Shown here: piece by piece, positions 13,777-25,574 of the stretch | How the letters are laid out: every line of letters begins with the position of its first letter | How positions within the stretch are numbered: the first letter of the stretch is position 1 | Assembly: GCA_965215015.1 (NCBI GenBank) | Contig: OZ244042.1 | Coordinates: 4,800,001-4,864,000, forward strand | Reading direction: 5' to 3' | DNA: 64,000 bases | From: Candidatus Poribacteria bacterium | GTDB taxonomy: Bacteria > Poribacteria > WGA-4E > PCPOR2b | Position numbers and translations under genes: made by a program | Notes under the pieces: generated by a model | Told to the model about the DNA's origin: nothing | The model's database searches: none | The model's input: the letters and a program-made list of their open reading frames with translations, nothing else

Positions 13777-14769
13777 ATGGAAATTTATCGATGGGAAGGG
13801 AAAGGCTTTCGACAACTAGCCCCGTTGCGCTTTGAAGAAGAGCGCGACCTCGAAGACCTACTCGAGCAGGATCCCAATCTTCTCCTAGGAAACGAGCGCA
13901 TTTGTATAATCAGCCGACAAGTTCCCATCGGAAAATCCCAAAAAATCGATCTCCTCGCACTCGACCGTCAAGGAAATTGTATCGTCATCGAACTCAAGCG
14001 GGGAAAAGCCTCCCGTGCGGCGGTTGCACAAATTCTCGAATACGCCGCAGCCGTTGCCAAATTCTCCTTTGCCGATCTGGAGCGTTTTGCAGGACGCTGG
14101 TTTCAGGGACAAGGACGCGAGTTTACCTCTCTGCTCGCACTGCACAGCGCGTTCTTCAGCTACGAATTGGGTGCCATGAGGATGTCTGCCTTCAATCGTA
14201 AGCAGCGGATGGTTCTTGTTTCTGAAGGGGTTGATGTGCGTGTCCTCGATATCGCCGAATACCTCCGGCGCGGTGGCATCGACCTGACCTACATTTCCTA
14301 CTTCTCCTACCAAGCACCTGACGAAATCCTGATTGCTACAAAGACAATACTCGGCACCGCTGCCATTGAGGAATCCCGCGCCACCTATCAATACACCCCC
14401 CGGCAGCTCTTAACCCGCGAGCGTTTTCTCGCCACACTTACCAAGAATCAAGAACTCCATCAGGTTGCCCAACAATTCTTTAATTACGTGGAATCGTGCG
14501 GTGCAATTCTTCGGCCGAGAATCGCCCAGATTCGCATGACAATTGGCGGAAGGTGGTGGATGGGGTCATATCCATCGAAACGAGCAACCCATTTTCGGAT
14601 CGATGCCCACGGGGATTTCACGCCGAGGCACATCGCCGAGTGTCGATCGAACCTCCCTGACGTAACACCCAAAAAATACGGAGTTTCGTTCAACATCAAA
14701 TCCCAGGCCCATCTGGAATACGCCATCGAAATTTTTGAACGCACACGAAACACAATCTTAGAGGAGTAA
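13777..14769 (+). CDS. NucS/DUF91-like PD-(D/E)xK endonuclease domain protein with C-terminal accessory domain
   Basis: E.DLEDLL, RQV, IDLLALD..GN..VIELKR, AVAQILEY motifs. Confidence 0.75.
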   Translation: MEIYRWEGKGFRQLAPLRFEEERDLEDLLEQDPNLLLGNERICIISRQVPIGKSQKIDLLALDRQGNCIVIELKRGKASRAAVAQILEYAAAVAKFSFADLERFAGRWFQGQGREFTSLLALHSAFFSYELGAMRMSAFNRKQRMVLVSEGVDVRVLDIAEYLRRGGIDLTYISYFSYQAPDEILIATKTILGTAAIEESRATYQYTPRQLLTRERFLATLTKNQELHQVAQQFFNYVESCGAILRPRIAQIRMTIGGRWWMGSYPSKRATHFRIDAHGDFTPRHIAECRSNLPDVTPKKYGVSFNIKSQAHLEYAIEIFERTRNTILEE

Positions 14770-18344: not shown

Positions 18345-19005
18345 CCCCCTGCTTGCGGGGGGCTTTAATTAGGTTAGTAGTAGCGCGATTCATTGCGCGT
18401 CTTGTGTCCTCCCCCTGCTTGCGGGGGAATTTAATTAGGTTGGTAGTAGCGCGATTCATTGCGCGTCTTGTGTCCTCCCCTGCTTGCGGGGGCTTAATTA
18501 GTTTGGTAGTAGCGCGATTCATTGCGCGTCTTATGTCCTCCCCTGCTTGTGCGGAGGCTTAATTAGGTTAGTAGTAGCGCGATTCATTACGCGTCTTGTG
18601 TCCTCCCCTTGCTTGCGAGGGACTTAATTAGTTTGGTAGTAGCGCGATTCATTACGCGTCTTGTGTCCTCCCCTGCTTGCGGGTTGCATCCCTGCTTACG
18701 TTCTTTCCCCGCCGCTTGTGCCCTCCCCCTGCTTGCGGGGGAATTTAATTAGTTTGGTAGTAGCGCGATTCATTGCGCGTCTTGTGTCCTCCCCTGCTTG
18801 TGCGGAGGGACTTAATTAGTTTGGTAGTAGCGCGATTCATTGCGCGTCTTGTGTCCTCCCCTGCTTGTGCGGAGGCTTAATTAGGTTAGTAGTAGCGCGA
18901 TTCATTACGCGTCTTGTGTCCTCCCCTGCTTGCGGGTTGCATCCCTGCTTACGTTCTTTCCCCGCCGCTTGTGCCCTCCCCCTGCTTGCGGGGGACCGAG
19001 GGGGG
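18345..19005. repeat. tandem array of about 63-66 bp composite REP units (8 copies of GTAGTAGCGCGATTCATT(G/A)CGCG alternating with CCCCTGCTTGCGGGG)
   Basis: GTAG core at about 18377, 18443, 18506, 18571, 18637, 18757, 18824, 18889; an inserted variant (GGGTTGCATCCCTGCTTACGTTCTTTCCCCGCCGC) occurs twice; no unique spacers. Confidence 0.92.
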
Positions 19006-19100
19006 TCTTGGGTTCTTAGGGGGAAGAAACCGTGTGGGTATCGGGATTCGAGGGGGGCACCCGCCCATAAAAGAGTCTCGGAGCGTAGACGGTCCAATTT

Positions 19101-19754
19101 TCAGAATGTGTCAATCCCCTCAAACTCAGGAGGATCGGGCGGCTCCACCTTCGCATTACGACCAAATCTAAAGGTCACCACGACCGAGGTACCGTTCAGA
19201 TCTGAGTTATCGATTCCTGCGATGCCAACGCCACGGATATAGCGGTAACTCCCTCCAAAATAGATCTGGAGATAAGTTTTCATATTCCATACTATATTGA
19301 GTTGCGGCTGAATAATAAAAAAAGTATCGTCGGGACCACCCAATCTACCATATTCATCATAGGATCCATCAAACCGCTGATATCGATCTGTCAACCCACC
19401 AAACCCGATCAAAGTCTGGGCAGAGAGATGGACATCTCGACTGGGAGCGATAATATATTCCAGCTCCAGTCCACTGTAGGCAAACTCAAATTCACGTTCA
19501 GGATCAGACGATTTTATGTCTCTGAGCAAGCCGTAAAATCCGCCCCCAATTGCATACCTATGTTTATAAATCCAGCCCCCTCGACCACCAACTATCAAGC
19601 CGAATACATTGTTAATCCTTGTAACCTTTAATACCGGTCCCCCAAAACCACCGCTTTTGCTAGGCTTCTCAGCCTTCGTTTCTTCCAAATCCTCTTCTGC
19701 CCAAAGAGAGGCTGCCAACATAAGTAAAAACAACAAAAGCGTCAATTTTTTCAC
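19101..19754 (-). CDS. exported protein, probable small outer-membrane beta-barrel
   Basis: Signal peptide MKKLTLLLFLLMLAASLWA after AGGGAG; SGGFGGP...GGRGGW, alternating amphipathic strands, GGSYRY, terminal FRFG strand. Confidence 0.7.
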   Translation of the reverse strand: MKKLTLLLFLLMLAASLWAEEDLEETKAEKPSKSGGFGGPVLKVTRINNVFGLIVGGRGGWIYKHRYAIGGGFYGLLRDIKSSDPEREFEFAYSGLELEYIIAPSRDVHLSAQTLIGFGGLTDRYQRFDGSYDEYGRLGGPDDTFFIIQPQLNIVWNMKTYLQIYFGGSYRYIRGVGIAGIDNSDLNGTSVVVTFRFGRNAKVEPPDPPEFEGIDTF

Positions 19755-19782
19755 CAAATTCTCCCTTAAATTTGAAAGGTTA

Positions 19783-20228
19783 TTATACACTTTCCGCGTT
19801 CACCGAATCTTCAAGCTGTGTCATCAATTTCTGTGACAGCCGGGCTAGGATAGCGAGGCGAAAGTTCGCATCCCCATCCACGCCAAACTGCTCGAAAACC
19901 TGTTCGATTCCGCGCTCGATGTTGTTGACTTGCCCCTCATTGGATCAAGGTGTCCTGCTGCCTCGCGGAGCCGTGCTTCAATGTCGATATCGCTTCCCTC
20001 CCATAGGGCATAGGCATCGTTGTAACGACGGTAAATAACAATAGAGCGTCCCTCTAACATCATCAATGCAGACTCAAACGATTGGACAGACTCATCAGCT
20101 TCATTCCGGAATGTCTCCGCGGCAGCATCAAGTGCGTAACGGAGTAAAGCCTTTGAGTTTTTCAGATTCACGCTTGCTTCCCCGACAATACCGAGCAGAC
20201 CGACGGTTTTGATCAGTTTCACTGTCAT
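19783..20228 (-). pseudogene. internally deleted remnant of a large SspC-like ATP-binding protein
   Basis: Frame 1 LIKTVGLLGI...RSIVIYRRYNDAYALWEGSDIDIEARL resembles the middle of the large ATPases found with DUF4007/PAPS-reductase genes; it joins out of frame near 19940 to NEGQVNNIERGIEQVF...FRLAILARLSQKLM...SV*, which reads like a C-terminus. No Walker A region remains. Confidence 0.65.
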
Positions 20229-20343
20229 GGTTATTCGGGACTGAGGTGGGGCTTAGGGTTCTTAGCAGGGGAAGGGGGTACAGCATACGCCGTATGCTTA
20301 ATACCTTAAAGACTCTCACGGAATACCTTTGCGATTCTGCCGA

Positions 20344-21231
20344 TTACAATTCACGGTAATCCCCTTGAAATACCTCTCTGATGTGCCAGTTTATAAAATT
20401 TTCGTGCGGATAATAGGACTGCCTTTGAGGGAAGTTGATCCTTTCACCGTGAAAATTCATAAGCCACTCTTCAAAACCCACTGAACCATTGGCCTCATCT
20501 GATACCATTATTTCTAGTTGCTCGGACAGCGTAAACGCCCCACGGTCAAATAGCTTATGGTGTAACGAACATAGAGCCAATCCATTTACTTCTGTATCGG
20601 GACCATCTGCCTGACGCCATTTGATATGAGATGCTTCTAGCGCAATAGGCAAGGTGCCCAATCTCACATCAAAGCCACAGACAGCGCATTTATATTCGTA
20701 GGCTTTCAGGATATTCGCCCGGAAGTTGGAGTTGGGCCTTCGCCACCTGGAGATCTGAGGAGGAAACCCAATCCCAACAGCCTGTAAAATGTCCTCATGA
20801 AGCGAAGGAGGAAAATGACCATCTAGTAAGCTATGGATTATTTCAAAAGACAATTTGGAATCGTTTTGAAGTTGATAAGCAATATCTTCGAGAAAACCTC
20901 CAGAAGTGTTGTAACGGACCAGATCGCTTCTTAGAGCGTCTCCACTGGCTGTTTGTCGAATTCTGTCGGCATCAGATATCTCCCAAATTCCGTCATTTTG
21001 GAGCCGCCAAAACGGATAATGTGTTCTATCATTGGCTTGTCTGGGACCAAACTCCCTCAGTAAATTTCCAAGGTTGTCATCTATTTCAGAATATGGCAGG
21101 AAGCGGTTCCCATCTCGTAGTAACTTTCCAATGGCATACAGAACCAGCAGAGGCTTGTGAGGTGCTCTCCTGTCAGCATTTTTCCACACTTTTAATTGTT
21201 CAAATTTATGAGCAATTGCTTCTCTGTTCAT
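20344..21231 (-). CDS. phosphorothioated-DNA-binding restriction endonuclease (SBD + HNH)
   Basis: Sulfur-binding-domain motifs RAPHKPLL and HYPFWRLQNDGIWE (ScoMcrA SBD type); HNH with CAVCG, ASHIKW, NGLALCSLHHKLFD. Confidence 0.88.
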   Translation of the reverse strand: MNREAIAHKFEQLKVWKNADRRAPHKPLLVLYAIGKLLRDGNRFLPYSEIDDNLGNLLREFGPRQANDRTHYPFWRLQNDGIWEISDADRIRQTASGDALRSDLVRYNTSGGFLEDIAYQLQNDSKLSFEIIHSLLDGHFPPSLHEDILQAVGIGFPPQISRWRRPNSNFRANILKAYEYKCAVCGFDVRLGTLPIALEASHIKWRQADGPDTEVNGLALCSLHHKLFDRGAFTLSEQLEIMVSDEANGSVGFEEWLMNFHGERINFPQRQSYYPHENFINWHIREVFQGDYREL

Positions 21232-21258
21232 TTTTCATGGCCTGCTATTTGAGAGAAT

Positions 21259-21369
21259 CTATGATAGGCAAGGCAGGATTTTCGGCACTTTGTCCCGCAT
21301 GTAAATCGCGAGTGCTGAGCTATCTTTGCCACCGGAAAGGCCGAGGATATGACGCATTTTTTGTTCCAT
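21259..21369 (-). pseudogene. truncated sspD-like 5' stub (36 codons)
   Basis: MEQKMRHILGLSGGKDSSALAIYMRDKVPK-ILPCLS*; the first 29-30 codons and about 75 bp of upstream leader align with the gene starting at 24966. Confidence 0.9.
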
Positions 21370-21444
21370 GGTATCCCCTAACTCTCTGTTTAAGATATGC
21401 CCCCCTGCTGTTGGCGGATTCAATTAATTGTATGAGGGGGGTGC

Positions 21445-21815
21445 TTGACGTACTCCCACACCTAAAGGGTTGGGATTCTTCACTGTCCCTTTAGGATTAG
21501 TTTAGATATATGATTGATGAATCTAAACTTGCGGATAGACTTGTCGTAGATAACATAGTAGCAACGCTGGAGCGCAATGCAATGATTCCATACCTCCGCG
21601 TGTCCCTCTATCGTCTTGTGTAACTCACGGTTGCCGTGATGGCTATACATTTTGAAATTGTAGGACTTCATAGGATTTCGCTCTCTGGAACGGACTGTTA
21701 GGGCGATCCCTAACAACGGCTAACAATCAGACAGTTTCAACCATTGTTTGACTGAATACCGTTTGCCAATCTGTATCCCTGTCTTAAAAGACGGGGGTTA
21801 GATCGGAAGATTCTG
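21445..21815 (-). mobile_element. tnpB: internally deleted IS200/IS605-family element with a tnpB N-terminal fragment
   Basis: Minus strand: TTTAT target, left end with hairpin (CCCCCGTCTTTTAAGACAGGG), MKSYNFKMY...VWNHCIALQRCYY fragment, right end AGAATCCCAACCCTTTAGGTGTGGGAGTACGTCAA. Confidence 0.8.
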
Positions 21816-21843
21816 ATAAAATTTCCGTTTTCTTTTTTCCCAT

Positions 21844-22332
21844 CTACCGATGAAATTCCAAAATCCAAGATTCCAATAGGCCAGAAATCCTATCTGCTTC
21901 TTCTTGAACATCCTGAAGTTTACTGTATGAATTAGGGCGTGTTTGTGAAACAATGCGAATCTTTAGATTATGTTCATATAACCAATTACTTAATCGTAAT
22001 TGTACTAAATTTTCTACTGCCTTGCGGTATTCTTGGCTATCAATCTGAAATATCTCTTTCGGTGTGAATTTTATTGCTGCAAAATCAACCTTTTCTAGTG
22101 GTACTTCCTCATAGTAATCAATATTGGAAAGACGTTGAAGATAAGTATTATTATTTCCATCAGATAAATGTTGGGCGAGTCTACCGAGTGCCCCTGTACG
22201 TCCTCTTGTCTGTCCAACGTAGAGAGTTGCCAGATTGTCAACTACCCCATAAATCGTATACAAAAAACCGTTTTTTTTCGCTATTGTTACATCAAAAACT
22301 GTTGCCTGTCCAATTTCTACAGAATGTTTCAT
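21844..22332 (-). CDS. putative GIY-YIG family endonuclease
   Basis: GFLY...LYVGQT...GRLAQH...AVE...PN matches the GIY / YIG / Arg / Glu / Asn layout; overlaps the ATPase 3' end by 41 bp. Confidence 0.6.
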   Translation of the reverse strand: MKHSVEIGQATVFDVTIAKKNGFLYTIYGVVDNLATLYVGQTRGRTGALGRLAQHLSDGNNNTYLQRLSNIDYYEEVPLEKVDFAAIKFTPKEIFQIDSQEYRKAVENLVQLRLSNWLYEHNLKIRIVSQTRPNSYSKLQDVQEEADRISGLLESWILEFHR

Positions 22333-24034
22333 ACCTCCGCAAAAAATCAGTTAGATTAAGTCTTCGGATTACATCTGAAAGAGTTCCGCCAACTCTCTCC
22401 CGGTATTCCGTCATAATCTCTTCAATTTCATCATCATCTTGTTCTGATTTATAAACGAGATCATATTCACCTCTAGTGATCGAATAGAAGAGGAGGTCCA
22501 TTACCTTCAGCAGATTACTATTGTCGTGGGCAGTGTCTAAAATATCCCGACAAAATCTGTGGGATTTATTGACTCTTACAATCAGTCCTTCCCTAGGATC
22601 ATGGGCTCTTTCCCATAGTTGATTATTGTCTAGTGTATCCACATATAGAACACGCTGCCCTGTTTTTTTGATATGTTGTTCATCTTCAGGCTTTATCGGT
22701 TTCGTGCTAACAGCTTTATTCCGGCGTTTCTCTAACTCCTTTCTTTCCTCTGCAGGAGCAACACTCTCATCAAACCTATCTTCATCGGCTTGGAGCTGCG
22801 AGATCCGATTTAACTGCTGATTAGCGGTATCATGAGGGCCTTGCGTGAGTGACTCGACCGTAAGGCGGTGCGCGGTGCGCCAAGCAATCCGACTCTTTTT
22901 TATCGCCTCCTGAACCTCTGGTTTAAGCTGGTCTTGAGCAATTTCCGAAAGATTTACACGATTCTTCGTAACATTTATATTTAAAATATCATCAGCGTCA
23001 CTATCGATTAACAGCCGGCCACGAAAAGCACATAAATCCTGATCTTGTGGCACGAAAGCTAACCCATCTGCCCACGAAATCAATCTCCAGTTACGATAAA
23101 TGTAGAAACCATAATTTCCTGATCCAATCAGATAACGGTCCCGGCAATCCTTCCGGCTCATTAAGCCTTTACGTTCTACGCTCGGCGGATGCGGAAGTTG
23201 CGTTATTTCAACTCGTGCCCATATACTTGCGGTAGAATCAAGTTGAATTGCCTGTAATTTTGTAATCCATTTTGGGTGAAGCCCATCCCAATTGTGCTCG
23301 TTCAAATCACCATTATCAACGTCAATTTCATCTATAAACAAAGGATCTATCGGTGGGACATCATAATCATCAATTTTCAGCGAGAGGCGTTTGGCTCCTT
23401 CAACTATGCCTTTCAAATAGTAGTAGTAAATTACACCGGCTTTAGCCTTTAATCCGTGTATAATTTCAGAGGTAGGCGGTAGGGATTCATGAAATAGCTT
23501 GGTGATACGAATTAAAGTACCAGATTTCCCTTGAGTACAAGCGTCCAATTCATTGAGATCTTCGTCTGTGGGCTTGGTTAAATCGTAAACATATTTTCCC
23601 TTCTCAACAATTAAATCTTGATCTAACACGACTTTGCGAACATCATTTGAACCATTGTCAGAACGTGATACTATTTCTAACTGCTTTCCTAGTGATGAGG
23701 CAGCTGATTTCAAGCCTATACCGAACTTTGAAAGCGTTTTCGCATGATATCGTTGTGCTGAAGAACCTAAGGTAAGGGCATTATCTAACCCCTGCTCATC
23801 CATACCGCAGCCGTTATCTACAATAACCAGTGACTTTAAAATCGCTCGCGGCCTTCCACGTTGTCGTTTTGTTCGTTCTTCACTCTCTGTCTTCGCTTTG
23901 ATTACAACGGAGGTAGCGCTTGCTGACACTGAATTATCCACGAGATCTAAAATAGCAGATATCGGATCGTATCCTATGCGCCCCAACGCTTGAAATACAC
24001 GTCCTGCATCCCATGCCCCTTCTTTTATACGCAT
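22292..24034 (-). CDS. GHKL (MORC/HATPase_c_3-type) ATPase with S5-like domain and C-terminal charged helical region
   Basis: GY...AILDLVDNS, DNGCGM, SKFGIGLKSA, SGTLI motifs; YGFYIYRNWRLI; likely ATG at 24034 after GGGGAG. Confidence 0.88.
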   Translation of the reverse strand: MRIKEGAWDAGRVFQALGRIGYDPISAILDLVDNSVSASATSVVIKAKTESEERTKRQRGRPRAILKSLVIVDNGCGMDEQGLDNALTLGSSAQRYHAKTLSKFGIGLKSAASSLGKQLEIVSRSDNGSNDVRKVVLDQDLIVEKGKYVYDLTKPTDEDLNELDACTQGKSGTLIRITKLFHESLPPTSEIIHGLKAKAGVIYYYYLKGIVEGAKRLSLKIDDYDVPPIDPLFIDEIDVDNGDLNEHNWDGLHPKWITKLQAIQLDSTASIWARVEITQLPHPPSVERKGLMSRKDCRDRYLIGSGNYGFYIYRNWRLISWADGLAFVPQDQDLCAFRGRLLIDSDADDILNINVTKNRVNLSEIAQDQLKPEVQEAIKKSRIAWRTAHRLTVESLTQGPHDTANQQLNRISQLQADEDRFDESVAPAEERKELEKRRNKAVSTKPIKPEDEQHIKKTGQRVLYVDTLDNNQLWERAHDPREGLIVRVNKSHRFCRDILDTAHDNSNLLKVMDLLFYSITRGEYDLVYKSEQDDDEIEEIMTEYRERVGGTLSDVIRRLNLTDFLRRYETFCRNWTGNSF

Positions 24035-24147
24035 CTTCTCCCCCGGTTTTTGTAAGGTGGTAGCTATCGCCTCTATTTTCCAAGGCACCTATTGCTACAT
24101 TACATAGAGATTTCCTAGTTTCCTTATGAATAAGATTTTTCCTAGTC

Positions 24148-24966
24148 TCACAAATCACAAATCAAGCATGGCTTCTCATCGTCCTCATCATCAAGGACAT
24201 CGCCGAAGATTTCAATTAACGGGCGATTCGGTTGGGACTTTTTTTCCTGTACCATTGCCTTCGCATGGTTTTCCTTAATCTGCCGTTCCCGCTCAGGGGC
24301 CGCCAGCTCTTCTAAACTCTCACCTTGGCTCCAAGTATACCTCTCGCCTGTTTTCGAGTTAAATTTCTCATAACCCTTGGCGAGTTCAAATAGCTCAGGG
24401 TGATTCTTCTTTAATCCAATCCACTCCGCCTTGCGTTGGTAGAAACAGAAGTAGCACCCGGAGCGCGTTCGCCATTTATAATACTCGGGTAAACCGAGGC
24501 CACTCTCCTCCAAAATCCGATAGACATCCCTCTCAGTGATCCCGGCCTCTTTGAACGGATATTTGGGTTCGATATTTCGTGCCTCAACGTTCTTCAGGGG
24601 CTTATAGCCAACGCGGTCCTCGTCGGCACGGATCGCGATGTAATTATAAGCCTTATCCTCACCGACAAATTCCTCGAAGGGTCTAATCTTCAACTGTGGT
24701 GTACACCAACGCACCTGCGATGAGGGCAGTAATCCACCATTTATAGCAAGCCAATGGTCAAAATCACGCTCGGTGTTTAACCGTTCAATTTTTTTGCCCA
24801 AAAAGGCTTCTAATCGATCGAGAAATTCATACGTCTCCGGCAATTCCTTTCCCGTATCGCAGAAGGCGTATTCCATCTCCGGCACGGTGTCCCGCATGTA
24901 GATAGCGAGTGCCGAACTATCTTTGCCCCCGGAAAGGCCGAGGATATGGCGCATTTTTTGTCCCAT
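24148..24966 (-). CDS. sspD: PAPS-reductase-family protein, SspD-like (DNA phosphorothioation family)
   Basis: PP-loop LSGGKDS, FCDTGKELPETY, RWCT, RSGCYFCFYQRK, C-terminal CLIC; assigned to SspD rather than CysH/DndC from size and motif recall. Confidence 0.75.
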   Translation of the reverse strand: MGQKMRHILGLSGGKDSSALAIYMRDTVPEMEYAFCDTGKELPETYEFLDRLEAFLGKKIERLNTERDFDHWLAINGGLLPSSQVRWCTPQLKIRPFEEFVGEDKAYNYIAIRADEDRVGYKPLKNVEARNIEPKYPFKEAGITERDVYRILEESGLGLPEYYKWRTRSGCYFCFYQRKAEWIGLKKNHPELFELAKGYEKFNSKTGERYTWSQGESLEELAAPERERQIKENHAKAMVQEKKSQPNRPLIEIFGDVLDDEDDEKPCLICDL

Positions 24967-25122
24967 GGTATCCCTCTATTTTCTATTTAAGATATGTTCC
25001 CCCCCTGTTGGCGGAGTCGATTAATTGTATGAGGGAGGTGCATAAATATAGTTGACGTCATCGCTAAAAATTCTATACACTTACCGCCCCTCTGGGGCGG
25101 GGGCAGCTATCAACTCTTTTCT

Positions 25123-25235
25123 TTGACGGCCTCCCAGTCCTAAAGGCTTAGGATTCTTCGCTGCCCCTTTAGGAGTGGAATCGCTCTATCCACTAAAGTG
25201 GGCCATCGAAAGATGGGCTGACAACTTCTCCTGAG
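25123..25235 (-). mobile_element. orphan IS200/IS605 right end with hairpin-rich scaffold (candidate reRNA/omegaRNA remnant)
   Basis: Minus strand ends AGAATCCTAAGCCTTTAGGACTGGGAGGCCGTCAA, homologous to 21445-21494; preceded by hairpins CCCATCTTTCGATGG and CCACTTTAGTGG. Confidence 0.6.
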
Positions 25236-25574
25236 GTAGTAGGGTGATTGATCACCCGTTATGACGCGCAATTCATTGCGCGTCGCCTACGGGGGTGCTT
25301 TCCCCACCGCTTGCGATTCCTCCCCCACCCGCAACAAATTCCCCTCCGCTTGCGGGGAGTTAGGGGGTAGGGGTTCTTATAAGCAATCCGATTAATGGGA
25401 GGAAATCCAAGGTCATGATCGTTATAGATTTTACCACAAAATTGTAGATTTTACCACACAATTGTTTCATTGGGTAGATAATATTCGCACACAATCAACA
25501 AAGCATCGTCAAGCCAACCTCTACTGCTGCTGTTAGGTGACCATCCCCTCCATCGCTAGCGCAGATTAACGTGG

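Follow-up and report, generated by a model that had tools for sequence, protein, structure and literature searches.

A predicted phosphorothioate-dependent nuclease in a decayed Ssp defense island of a Candidatus Poribacteria sponge symbiont

The subject of this analysis is a stretch of 64,000 nucleotides (nt) of a Candidatus Poribacteria genome (G000, one contig of 5.94 Mb, 98% complete; G000:C1:4800001-4864000), referred to here as the window, in whose numbering all positions below are given. A decayed Ssp (phosphorothioate, PT) defense island of this sponge symbiont lies within the window. Read along the minus strand, the island consists of sspD, a gene for a MORC-like ATPase, a GIY-YIG-like gene, a mobile-element remnant, a truncated second sspD (sspD′), an SBD-HNH nuclease gene, two SspC remnants, and a gene for a 229-residue protein. 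An earlier, sequence-only reading of this DNA had listed an sspD leader with 30 codons, the nuclease, the SspC fragments, and an intact sspD, and all of these elements lie where it had placed them.

The head gene, an intact sspD (24148 to 24966, on the minus strand like the other genes of the island), encodes a PAPS-reductase-type ATP pyrophosphatase of 272 residues. The protein scores 383.6 bits on the PADLOC SspD model (positions 1-276 of 277), matches Pfam PAPS_reduct, and retains the SGGKDS PP-loop and the CxxC motifs; it is 86-94% identical to its counterparts in 16 of the 19 other genomes of the genus. The ≈75 nt before the start codon (24967 to 25041) form a leader, the final 30-75 nt of which are conserved in front of sspD across the genus. 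This leader recurs at 86% identity at 21370 to 21444, where it heads the second copy, sspD′ (21278 to 21444), which breaks off after ≈30 codons and matches the PADLOC SspD model at positions 1-26. Leader and 5′ end together form a 167-nt direct repeat, 86% identical to 24875 to 25041. A spacer (21232 to 21277), aligned by eye with the spacers of relatives (G009, G022, and others), leads to the intact nuclease gene (20344 to 21231), which encodes 295 residues. Beyond the SspC remnants lies the 229-residue flanking gene (19101 to 19790). It has no family match in Pfam, NCBIfam, or PADLOC scans; in the genus loci that contain it, it stands directly after sspC or after SBD-HNH, at 75-83% identity.

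The first SspC remnant (19941 to 20231; open reading frame 19845-20228, 127 residues) matches 11 PADLOC families, 10 of which are SspC (best E 3e-18, model positions ≈413-493 of 1054), and in tblastn searches it corresponds to residues 459-552 of the 1230-residue SspC of the relative G008, at 75% identity. The second remnant (19789 to 19950), in a different frame, covers residues 1175-1228 and is 70-78% identical by tblastn to the last 54 SspC residues of relatives; PADLOC scans of this C-terminal piece, even at E 10, and of 20229-20343 gave no match. The proposal that both fragments derive from SspC is thus borne out, by a hidden Markov model for the middle piece and by tblastn for both. Together they amount to ≈12% of the protein, and their spans mean that sspC has lost its first 458 codons and ≈620 internal codons.

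Searches of the whole G000 genome found no other trace of SspC than the window fragment (model positions 412-492 of 1054), and matched SspD in three places only: the intact gene, the truncated copy, and, weakly, an unrelated PAPS reductase. SspB has no match in the genome by the PADLOC SspB model, which detects SspB in 22 of 41 relatives, nor by PF13182 (DUF4007, SspB), with which control genomes were also without a match. DndC was likewise absent, DndD gave nothing above 30 bits, and the PbeA search returned nothing beyond helicase-domain noise. By these searches for SspB, SspC, DndC, DndD, and PbeA, the genome holds no known PT writer, and the genome-wide search for dnd and ssp genes that the sequence-only reading had proposed as a check leaves, on the SspB and SspC side, only the SspC fragments. 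The arrangement itself is supported by other assemblies. Within one study, short-read contigs of two runs agree with it at every base over 18966-21643 and 21750-25300; the interval 21627-21776 is bridged by a 150-base record; and a 777-base contig of a separate study spans the junction between SspC fragment and nuclease (19799-20575).

The nuclease scores 348.3 bits on NCBIfam NF045808 (cut-off 180), the 'phosphorothioated DNA-binding restriction endonuclease' family, over model positions 2-284 of 284. HNH_2, at residues 182-235, is its sole Pfam match. The N-terminal half aligns to the solved SBDs of ScoMcrA (5zmm/5zmo, E 1e-11 to 3e-10) and SprMcrA (7cc9), and H25-K26 and Y72-P73 fall in register with the pocket residues of the ScoMcrA SBD, for which roles in the sulfur pocket (HR or HK, and YP) have been described (PMC6224610, PMC7461809). 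The RAPHKP and YPFWRL motifs and the Cys, His, and Asn columns of the HNH domain are conserved in alignments of 14 and of 77 relatives; invariant in the 77 are H25, P27, and P73, and the HNH and zinc residues C182, C185, H202, N216, C221, and H224. The ratio of nonsynonymous to synonymous substitution rates (dN/dS) is 0.19-0.28 between the window nuclease and its relatives and 0.06-0.28 across the sets examined, that is, purifying selection. By every feature that sequence can test, then, the protein is an ordinary member of the EcoWI/SprMcrA-type SBD-HNH family, with PT-dependent cutting predicted. It shares with these enzymes architecture, size, a full-length match above the curated cut-off, the HK/YP pocket, and the HNH and zinc residues, although it is at most ≈45-50% identical to the Bacillota and Planctomycetota members found. 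ScoMcrA of Streptomyces coelicolor (SBD-SRA-HNH) is more remote: its SBD aligns (E 1e-11) such that the residues that bind sulfur coincide, and its HNH domain aligns weakly, whereas the window nuclease is without an SRA domain and about half as long. Enzymes of the SBD-HNH type cleave DNA at GpsAAC/GpsTTC and restrict PT plasmids (PMC7461809; PMC6224610). The architecture of SspE, DUF262 (GmrSD_N) with DUF1524 (GmrSD_C), is not that of the window nuclease; SspE-like genes proper stand behind sspD in relatives (cluster c23).

The clade of the window nuclease is restricted to sponge-symbiont phyla. Nucleases 63-68% identical to it occur in Latescibacterota, Caldilineaceae, and Gemmatimonadota metagenome-assembled genomes (MAGs; L058, L061-L065, L068, L069, L073). 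Poribacteria, Latescibacterota, Caldilineaceae, and Gemmatimonadota nucleases form a single clade with 99% support, which suggests exchange among sponge-associated phyla. The linkage to ssp genes is also distinctive, at 60 of 71 nuclease loci in Poribacteria; a published survey had less than 3.6% of SBD-HNH enzymes near dnd clusters (PMC7461809). A Verrucomicrobiales MAG (L114), outside the sponge-symbiont clade, carries an SBD-HNH gene between sspH and sspA of an SspD-SspF-SspH-SspA cluster. Two SBD-HNH genes stand in tandem behind sspD in G015 (L074/L029) and G156 (L156), the two copies of G156 falling in different parts of the tree. A distant SBD-HNH-like paralog (G000:C1:680903-681832; L006:1501-2430), 26% identical to the window nuclease and, at 133 bits, below the NF045808 cut-off, keeps APHKP, has LPFF instead of YPFW, and is conserved in many relatives regardless of their Ssp state.

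Close relatives preserve what the window has lost. Seven genomes of the same genus carry an intact allele, ordered sspD, variable cargo, sspB, sspC, and, where the stretch reaches, the 229-residue gene; in G008, SspB and SspC of this allele score 338 and 1100 bits. The interpretation of the locus as the remains of an Ssp writer is supported by these alleles. Behind sspD, the head gene, this clade has an 'effector slot' of variable content, and in the genus of the window sspB and sspC close the island. At intact loci the slot behind sspD holds SspE-like genes (DUF262+DUF1524, 11 loci), DUF262+HNH genes, DndB-family genes, GHKL ATPases, GIY-YIG genes, PbeA/PbeC, or SspFGH. Compared with the SspABCD-SspE and SspFGH systems, the window shares an intact sspD and sspC remnants, and its relatives have full sspB-sspC-sspD sets with SspE-like, SspFGH, or Pbe genes behind sspD. 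The window differs in that its writer is incomplete, with sspB gone and sspC in pieces, and in that the gene in the effector position encodes a predicted PT-dependent nuclease rather than a DUF262/DUF1524 protein like SspE. Separately, a rearrangement has split the island of G002, its writer genes all intact, into sspD-ATPase-GIY (3.81 Mb) and sspB-sspC-flank (3.07 Mb), both on one contig (L021, L050).

The same relatives show where the nuclease normally stands. It begins 11-50 nt behind a complete sspD, and in the aligned genus relatives it is preceded by the sspD 3′ end (..EEPCLIC stop) and a conserved spacer of ≈36 nt, even where it lies behind the GIY-like gene (G006, G011). This conserved 3′ end and spacer argue that the moving unit is an sspD-SBD-HNH cassette. 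The second sspD of the window runs from codon ≈30 straight into the spacer, which amounts to an internal deletion of ≈730 nt. Other derivatives retain different amounts: in G009 only the sspD upstream region remains, fused to the same spacer, and in G130, from another genus, sspD codons 1-38 are kept before the nuclease. The nuclease thus did not land in sspD, by replacement or by insertion; its usual place in relatives is directly behind sspD, and it was the window's own sspD copy that suffered an internal deletion. The ancestor carried two head units in tandem, sspD-ATPase-GIY and then sspD′-SBD-HNH. The second sspD then lost ≈730 nt, leaving its leader and 30 codons right before the nuclease, and sspB and most of sspC were deleted. 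G006 has the same gene order as the window with a different SspC deletion end. The sspD leader that remains may drive transcription of the nuclease, or transcripts of the upstream sspD operon may run on into it. Expression from the leader is plausible, its best available support being that three independent deletion derivatives (the window, G009, and G130) keep the sspD upstream region before the nuclease.

We compared writer state with nuclease position at two depths. The genus set comprised 20 genomes including G000, with G016 (520 contigs) not judged. A full sspB is missing from each of the nine genomes with a full-length nuclease, of which G015 alone has a full sspC; in the 10 genomes without a full-length nuclease, sspB, sspC, and sspD are all full, and three of these writer-intact genomes (G004, G012, and G014) hold pieces of a nuclease pseudogene. 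The phylum set comprised 159 Poribacteria genomes at least 85% complete, of which 73 match NF045808 at E ≤1e-60 and 70 have a full-length nuclease, at 71 loci. Genes were scored as intact when a single open frame covered 85% or more of the reference, without out-of-frame continuation or internal stop. At 42 of the 71 loci the nuclease stands behind sspD or an sspD remnant (type D); three of these, with less than 1 kb of contig upstream, were set aside, which leaves 39 evaluable loci, G010 being judged by genome-wide searches. At 18 loci it precedes sspB-sspC-sspD by 300-600 nt, in the same orientation (type U), in each case with no sspD 3′ remnant before it. The other 11 loci have no ssp gene within ≈9.5 kb, and three of them (G009, G019, G150) show sspD remnants.

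The two gene orders are associated with opposite writer states. All of sspB, sspC, and sspD are intact at 2 of the 39 evaluable loci of type D, namely G090 and G097 (the latter with 87% coverage of SspB), at 18 of the 18 type U loci, and at 60 of 63 sspD loci without the nuclease. This control drew on 60 sspD loci without an adjacent full-length nuclease plus 7 loci of the genus. Four of the 60 were left out (one not evaluable, two type D loci with a broken or cut nuclease, and one type U locus cut by a contig end), and 53 of the remaining 56 were intact. Dropped beforehand were G021:C1 (writer dispersed), G028:C72 (already found intact), G037 (sspC spread over two contigs), and contig-end fragments of G103, G106, G131, and G089:C731. 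Fisher tests give p = 8e-22 and 6e-13, values that are overstated because related genomes are not independent.

The writer lesions of the type D loci are of at least eight kinds. Both sspB and sspC are absent at 15 loci, only an SspC remnant is left at two, and sspB is absent or a remnant beside an intact sspC at six; sspC is absent or a remnant beside an intact sspB at five, sspB has a frameshift or nonsense mutation at five, sspC has one at three, both are broken at one, and two are intact. Single lesions of sspB include frameshifts in G034 and G087, two TGA codons in G133, and other frameshifts in G156 and G059, and those of sspC a stop at 587 with a frameshift in G022, a frameshift near 1080 in G060, and a stop at 207 in G070. 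As these loci carry different lesions, the writer must have been inactivated several times independently. Directly after the nuclease, most type D loci continue with the conserved flank or with unrelated defense genes.

Ancestry of the nuclease does not account for the division. In the nuclease tree (both nuclease trees being quick searches) the type U label needs at least six changes on well-supported branches and the types are interleaved, which points to gene order, not nuclease lineage, as what tracks writer state. The idea that the coexisting nucleases form one clade was rejected by the tree. Type U nucleases are under purifying selection (dN/dS 0.06-0.17), and pocket and catalytic residues show no consistent difference between nucleases that coexist with a writer and those at decayed loci; in three of the six coexisting nucleases first seen, V or I replaces R22 and HILP replaces HIKW. 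At least eight type D genomes with a decayed linked writer hold a second, intact Ssp locus elsewhere (G028, G056, G059, G075, G089, G098, G151, G156). Together with these, the type U loci (18 genomes), G090, and G097 bring the genomes that combine nuclease and intact writer to at least 28 of the 70.

A further feature of the type D loci is the fate of sspD. It is intact at 37 of the 39 evaluable loci, often as the sole ssp gene, and broken in G017 and G053; sspB or sspC is lost or broken at 37 of the 39. At 12 loci in three genera, sspD and SBD-HNH stand alone between conserved flanks or contig ends. The median pairwise dN/dS of sspD among these minimal loci is 0.053 (0.022-0.084, 29 pairs), vs 0.04-0.07 in complete writers, and the dN/dS values of the nuclease there lie at 0.07-0.22. 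An alignment of 59 SspD proteins shows no variation in SGGKDS or in either CxxC motif. The intact sspD 3 kb from the window nuclease is no leftover: purifying selection on orphan sspD genes is as strong as on those of complete writers. Elsewhere, sspD heads PbeA-PbeC in G082 (L208) and ATPase-GIY-PbeA-PbeC in G072 (L249), with no sspB or sspC nearby.

We favor the explanation, at a probability of roughly 65% for the island as a whole, that the nuclease took over the slot behind sspD and that the linked writer, no longer needed, was then lost. The nuclease would act as a type IV enzyme, its SBD pocket binding Rp-phosphorothioate in incoming DNA and its HNH domain cutting nearby, with phage or PT-writing neighbors in the sponge as possible sources of such DNA. 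Unmarked host DNA would offer it no substrate. An enzyme of this kind in the slot would need no self mark, sspB and sspC would become dispensable, and loss of the writer could follow, perhaps sped by mild cutting of the host's own single-strand Ssp marks. A switch from writing to restricting PT, as the sequence-only reading had it, is a fair description of G000, which has no known writer and an intact predicted nuclease; incompatibility between reader and writer, as its cause, is only one of three explanations still in play.

Several observations weigh against this explanation. The window, G005, G006, and G011 lost the writer and yet keep the ATPase-GIY cargo, G054 and G055 lost sspC and yet keep a DndB-like gene, and G070 has an sspC stop codon and yet keeps its Pbe genes. 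Solitary sspBCD sets without a known effector are common elsewhere (2,211 of 2,678; PMC8092258). Strong purifying selection on sspD where sspB and sspC are missing (dN/dS 0.02-0.08) is left unaccounted for. Because many of the genomes are MAGs, the frameshift-only lesions (≈8 loci) could be assembly errors, against which stands the finding that the same assemblies yield 60 intact control loci out of 63; the genomes of one genus are, moreover, not independent of each other. Finally, a scan of 19700-25300 for sigma-70 promoters and terminators found 13 promoter-like sites vs 10.5 expected, which is chance level, and so adds nothing to the proposal, otherwise plausible from the three derivatives, that the nuclease is expressed from the old sspD promoter; a search for RNA runs containing the stretch listed none.

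An unlikely explanation is a conflict between reader and writer, in which the nuclease cuts the host's own Ssp-type marks, either writer or nuclease must go, and the window is a case of writer loss. The exclusion within the genus is perfect for sspB (0 of 9 with the nuclease, 10 of 10 without), the phylum-wide difference between type D loci and loci without the nuclease points the same way, and the reverse outcome also occurs: nuclease pseudogenes lie beside intact writers in G014 (two frames), G012 (a TAG stop), and G004 (a piece, 2-62), and in G092 a frameshifted nuclease lies 8 kb from an intact writer. Toxicity of SBD nucleases to PT writers has been published (PMC6224610; PMC10602919). 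However, restriction by an SBD nuclease is only 10-fold for a single-strand CpsCA writer, compared with 1000-fold for double-strand PT (PMC10602919), every type U writer is intact beside a nuclease under purifying selection, the nuclease tree switches type at least six times with the groups interleaved, no pocket or catalytic residue separates the groups consistently, and a PT-writing BREX type 4 operon is described as carrying mcrA between brxP and brxC with no ill effect (PMC12914056). With at least 28 of 70 genomes holding both nuclease and intact writer, eight of them by way of a second Ssp locus, simple incompatibility fails to explain the decay. As the driver that the sequence-only reading had considered, incompatibility has the genus-level exclusion for it and the type U and second-locus genomes against it, and that reading's other option, a nuclease that ignores or tolerates Ssp-type marks, is at least as likely in view of the same genomes.

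It is also conceivable, if doubtful, that sspD and SBD-HNH form a working two-gene module, in which a role of SspD independent of SspB and SspC serves the nuclease or the other genes that sspD heads, and unused writer genes are lost. The 12 minimal loci, the selection on sspD and its retained motifs there, the gap of 11-50 nt between the genes, the rarity of broken sspD (2 of 39) where sspB or sspC is mostly lost or broken (37 of 39), and the sspD genes that head Pbe or ATPase-GIY genes in G082 and G072 all speak for such a module. Set against these, 11 of the 71 nuclease loci have no nearby sspD and G009 and G019 have none genome-wide, so that the nuclease can stand alone; the sspD copy next to the window nuclease is itself deleted; and an ATP pyrophosphatase and an HNH nuclease have no known chemical link. 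Taken further, and with the same doubt, the pair could be a self-standing system descended from Ssp in which SspD does work of its own for the sulfur-reading nuclease. The pair might be a minimal or maintenance PT writer, in which the SBD finds existing marks and the HNH domain nicks, or SspD might control the nuclease in an ATP-dependent manner. If this were true, the near-universal decay of sspB and sspC would be the birth of a new system and not the death of an old one.

Very unlikely, in our judgment, is that the nuclease was a PT-sensing partner of Ssp like SspE, using host marks to tell self from foreign, and survives in this genome as an inactive relic. Its tight linkage to ssp genes, at 60 of 71 Poribacteria loci and 32 of the best 80 loci in a wider collection, speaks for a partnership, and SBD/wHTH+SAD+HNH proteins in the Dnd loci of 698 taxa have been proposed as alternative restriction components (PMC10853773). 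A partner dependent on the writer would be expected to decay with it, however, and this nuclease is intact and under purifying selection without a writer in nine genomes of the genus and at the 12 minimal loci (dN/dS 0.07-0.22); in addition, characterized family members cut PT-DNA and not unmarked DNA (PMC7461809). Reader-type nucleases do adjoin writer genes in other systems, namely wHTH(SBD)+SAD+HNH in Dnd loci and mcrA in BREX type 4 (PMC10853773; PMC12914056), and the BREX mcrA, like the window family, lies directly behind a PAPS-reductase-type gene (PMC12914056). These cases differ in not being Ssp, and the passages in which they are described speak of coexistence and report no systematic, gene-order-linked loss of the writer (PMC10853773; PMC12914056). 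An assembly artefact, such as two strains or the copies of the 167-nt repeat merged into one, could draw on the two repeated sspD 5′ ends with a multi-copy element between them and on the break of short-read contigs at 21643-21750, but is hardly credible for a genome in one 5.94 Mb contig, with identical contigs on both sides, the bridging 150-base record, the contig of an independent study, repeats only 86% identical, and the same gene order in G006, G005, and G011, so that the misassembly named earlier as a way to refute the arrangement was not borne out.

The remaining features of the island lie between the two sspD copies. The MORC-like GHKL ATPase (22292 to 24088; 598 residues), cargo behind sspD, matches Pfam HATPase_c_3 at 84 bits and MzaB weakly, and evolves at dN/dS 0.17-0.19. 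The gene for a 162-residue protein (21844 to 22332), without a family match and GIY-YIG-like by eye only, invariably follows the ATPase (dN/dS 0.15-0.24); Pfam GIY-YIG is matched by other small cargo genes in the same slot of relatives. The ATPase and GIY-like pair is found behind sspD in relatives with and without sspB and sspC. The second sspD leader is separated from the GIY-like gene by a multi-copy mobile-element remnant of 375 nt (21445 to 21819, no strand assigned), recognized from repeats in the genome. It is composite, its ends (1-54 and 276-375) and middle (55-243) recurring separately at 40 other places in the genome; read depth rises 10-fold over it, and contigs stop at its borders (21445 and 21819), leaving loose ends. 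An open reading frame of 78 residues within it (21480-21716) has no family match and resembles a TnpB N-terminus by eye only. Outside the island, 9.2 copies of a 65-nt unit, with 80% matches, form a tandem array at 18346-18934 whose depth in metagenome contigs is very high; a CRISPR interpretation was rejected, as the whole unit repeats and there are no unique spacers. A 330-residue protein at 13777-14769, 5 kb from the island, has a NucS/Shedu-type nuclease domain and matches the PADLOC candidate PDC-S11 (E 4e-32).

The enzyme family is a known one; our literature searches did not find the gene-order rule or the selected orphan sspD in print. No paper on SBD-HNH in decayed Ssp loci or in Poribacteria turned up among main texts, and supplementary tables (Table S4 of PMC7461809, Dataset S1 of PMC10853773) may list Ssp-linked cases. 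Readers and writers of PT have usually been seen as enemies, through type IV restriction of PT-DNA, and more recently as possible partners. The present clade amounts to an experiment done by nature dozens of times, in which the same nuclease and writer families meet opposite outcomes according to gene order (2 of 39 vs 18 of 18). One practical consequence is that the presence of sspD, used as a proxy for PT writing in metagenomes, would mislead, given that a complete writer is missing at 37 of the 39 evaluable loci of type D and at a small number of further sspD loci. Overall, the pattern makes three ideas testable: the action of SBD-HNH enzymes on single-strand Ssp marks, the retention of the writer only with a mark-sensing effector behind sspD, and a role of SspD's own.

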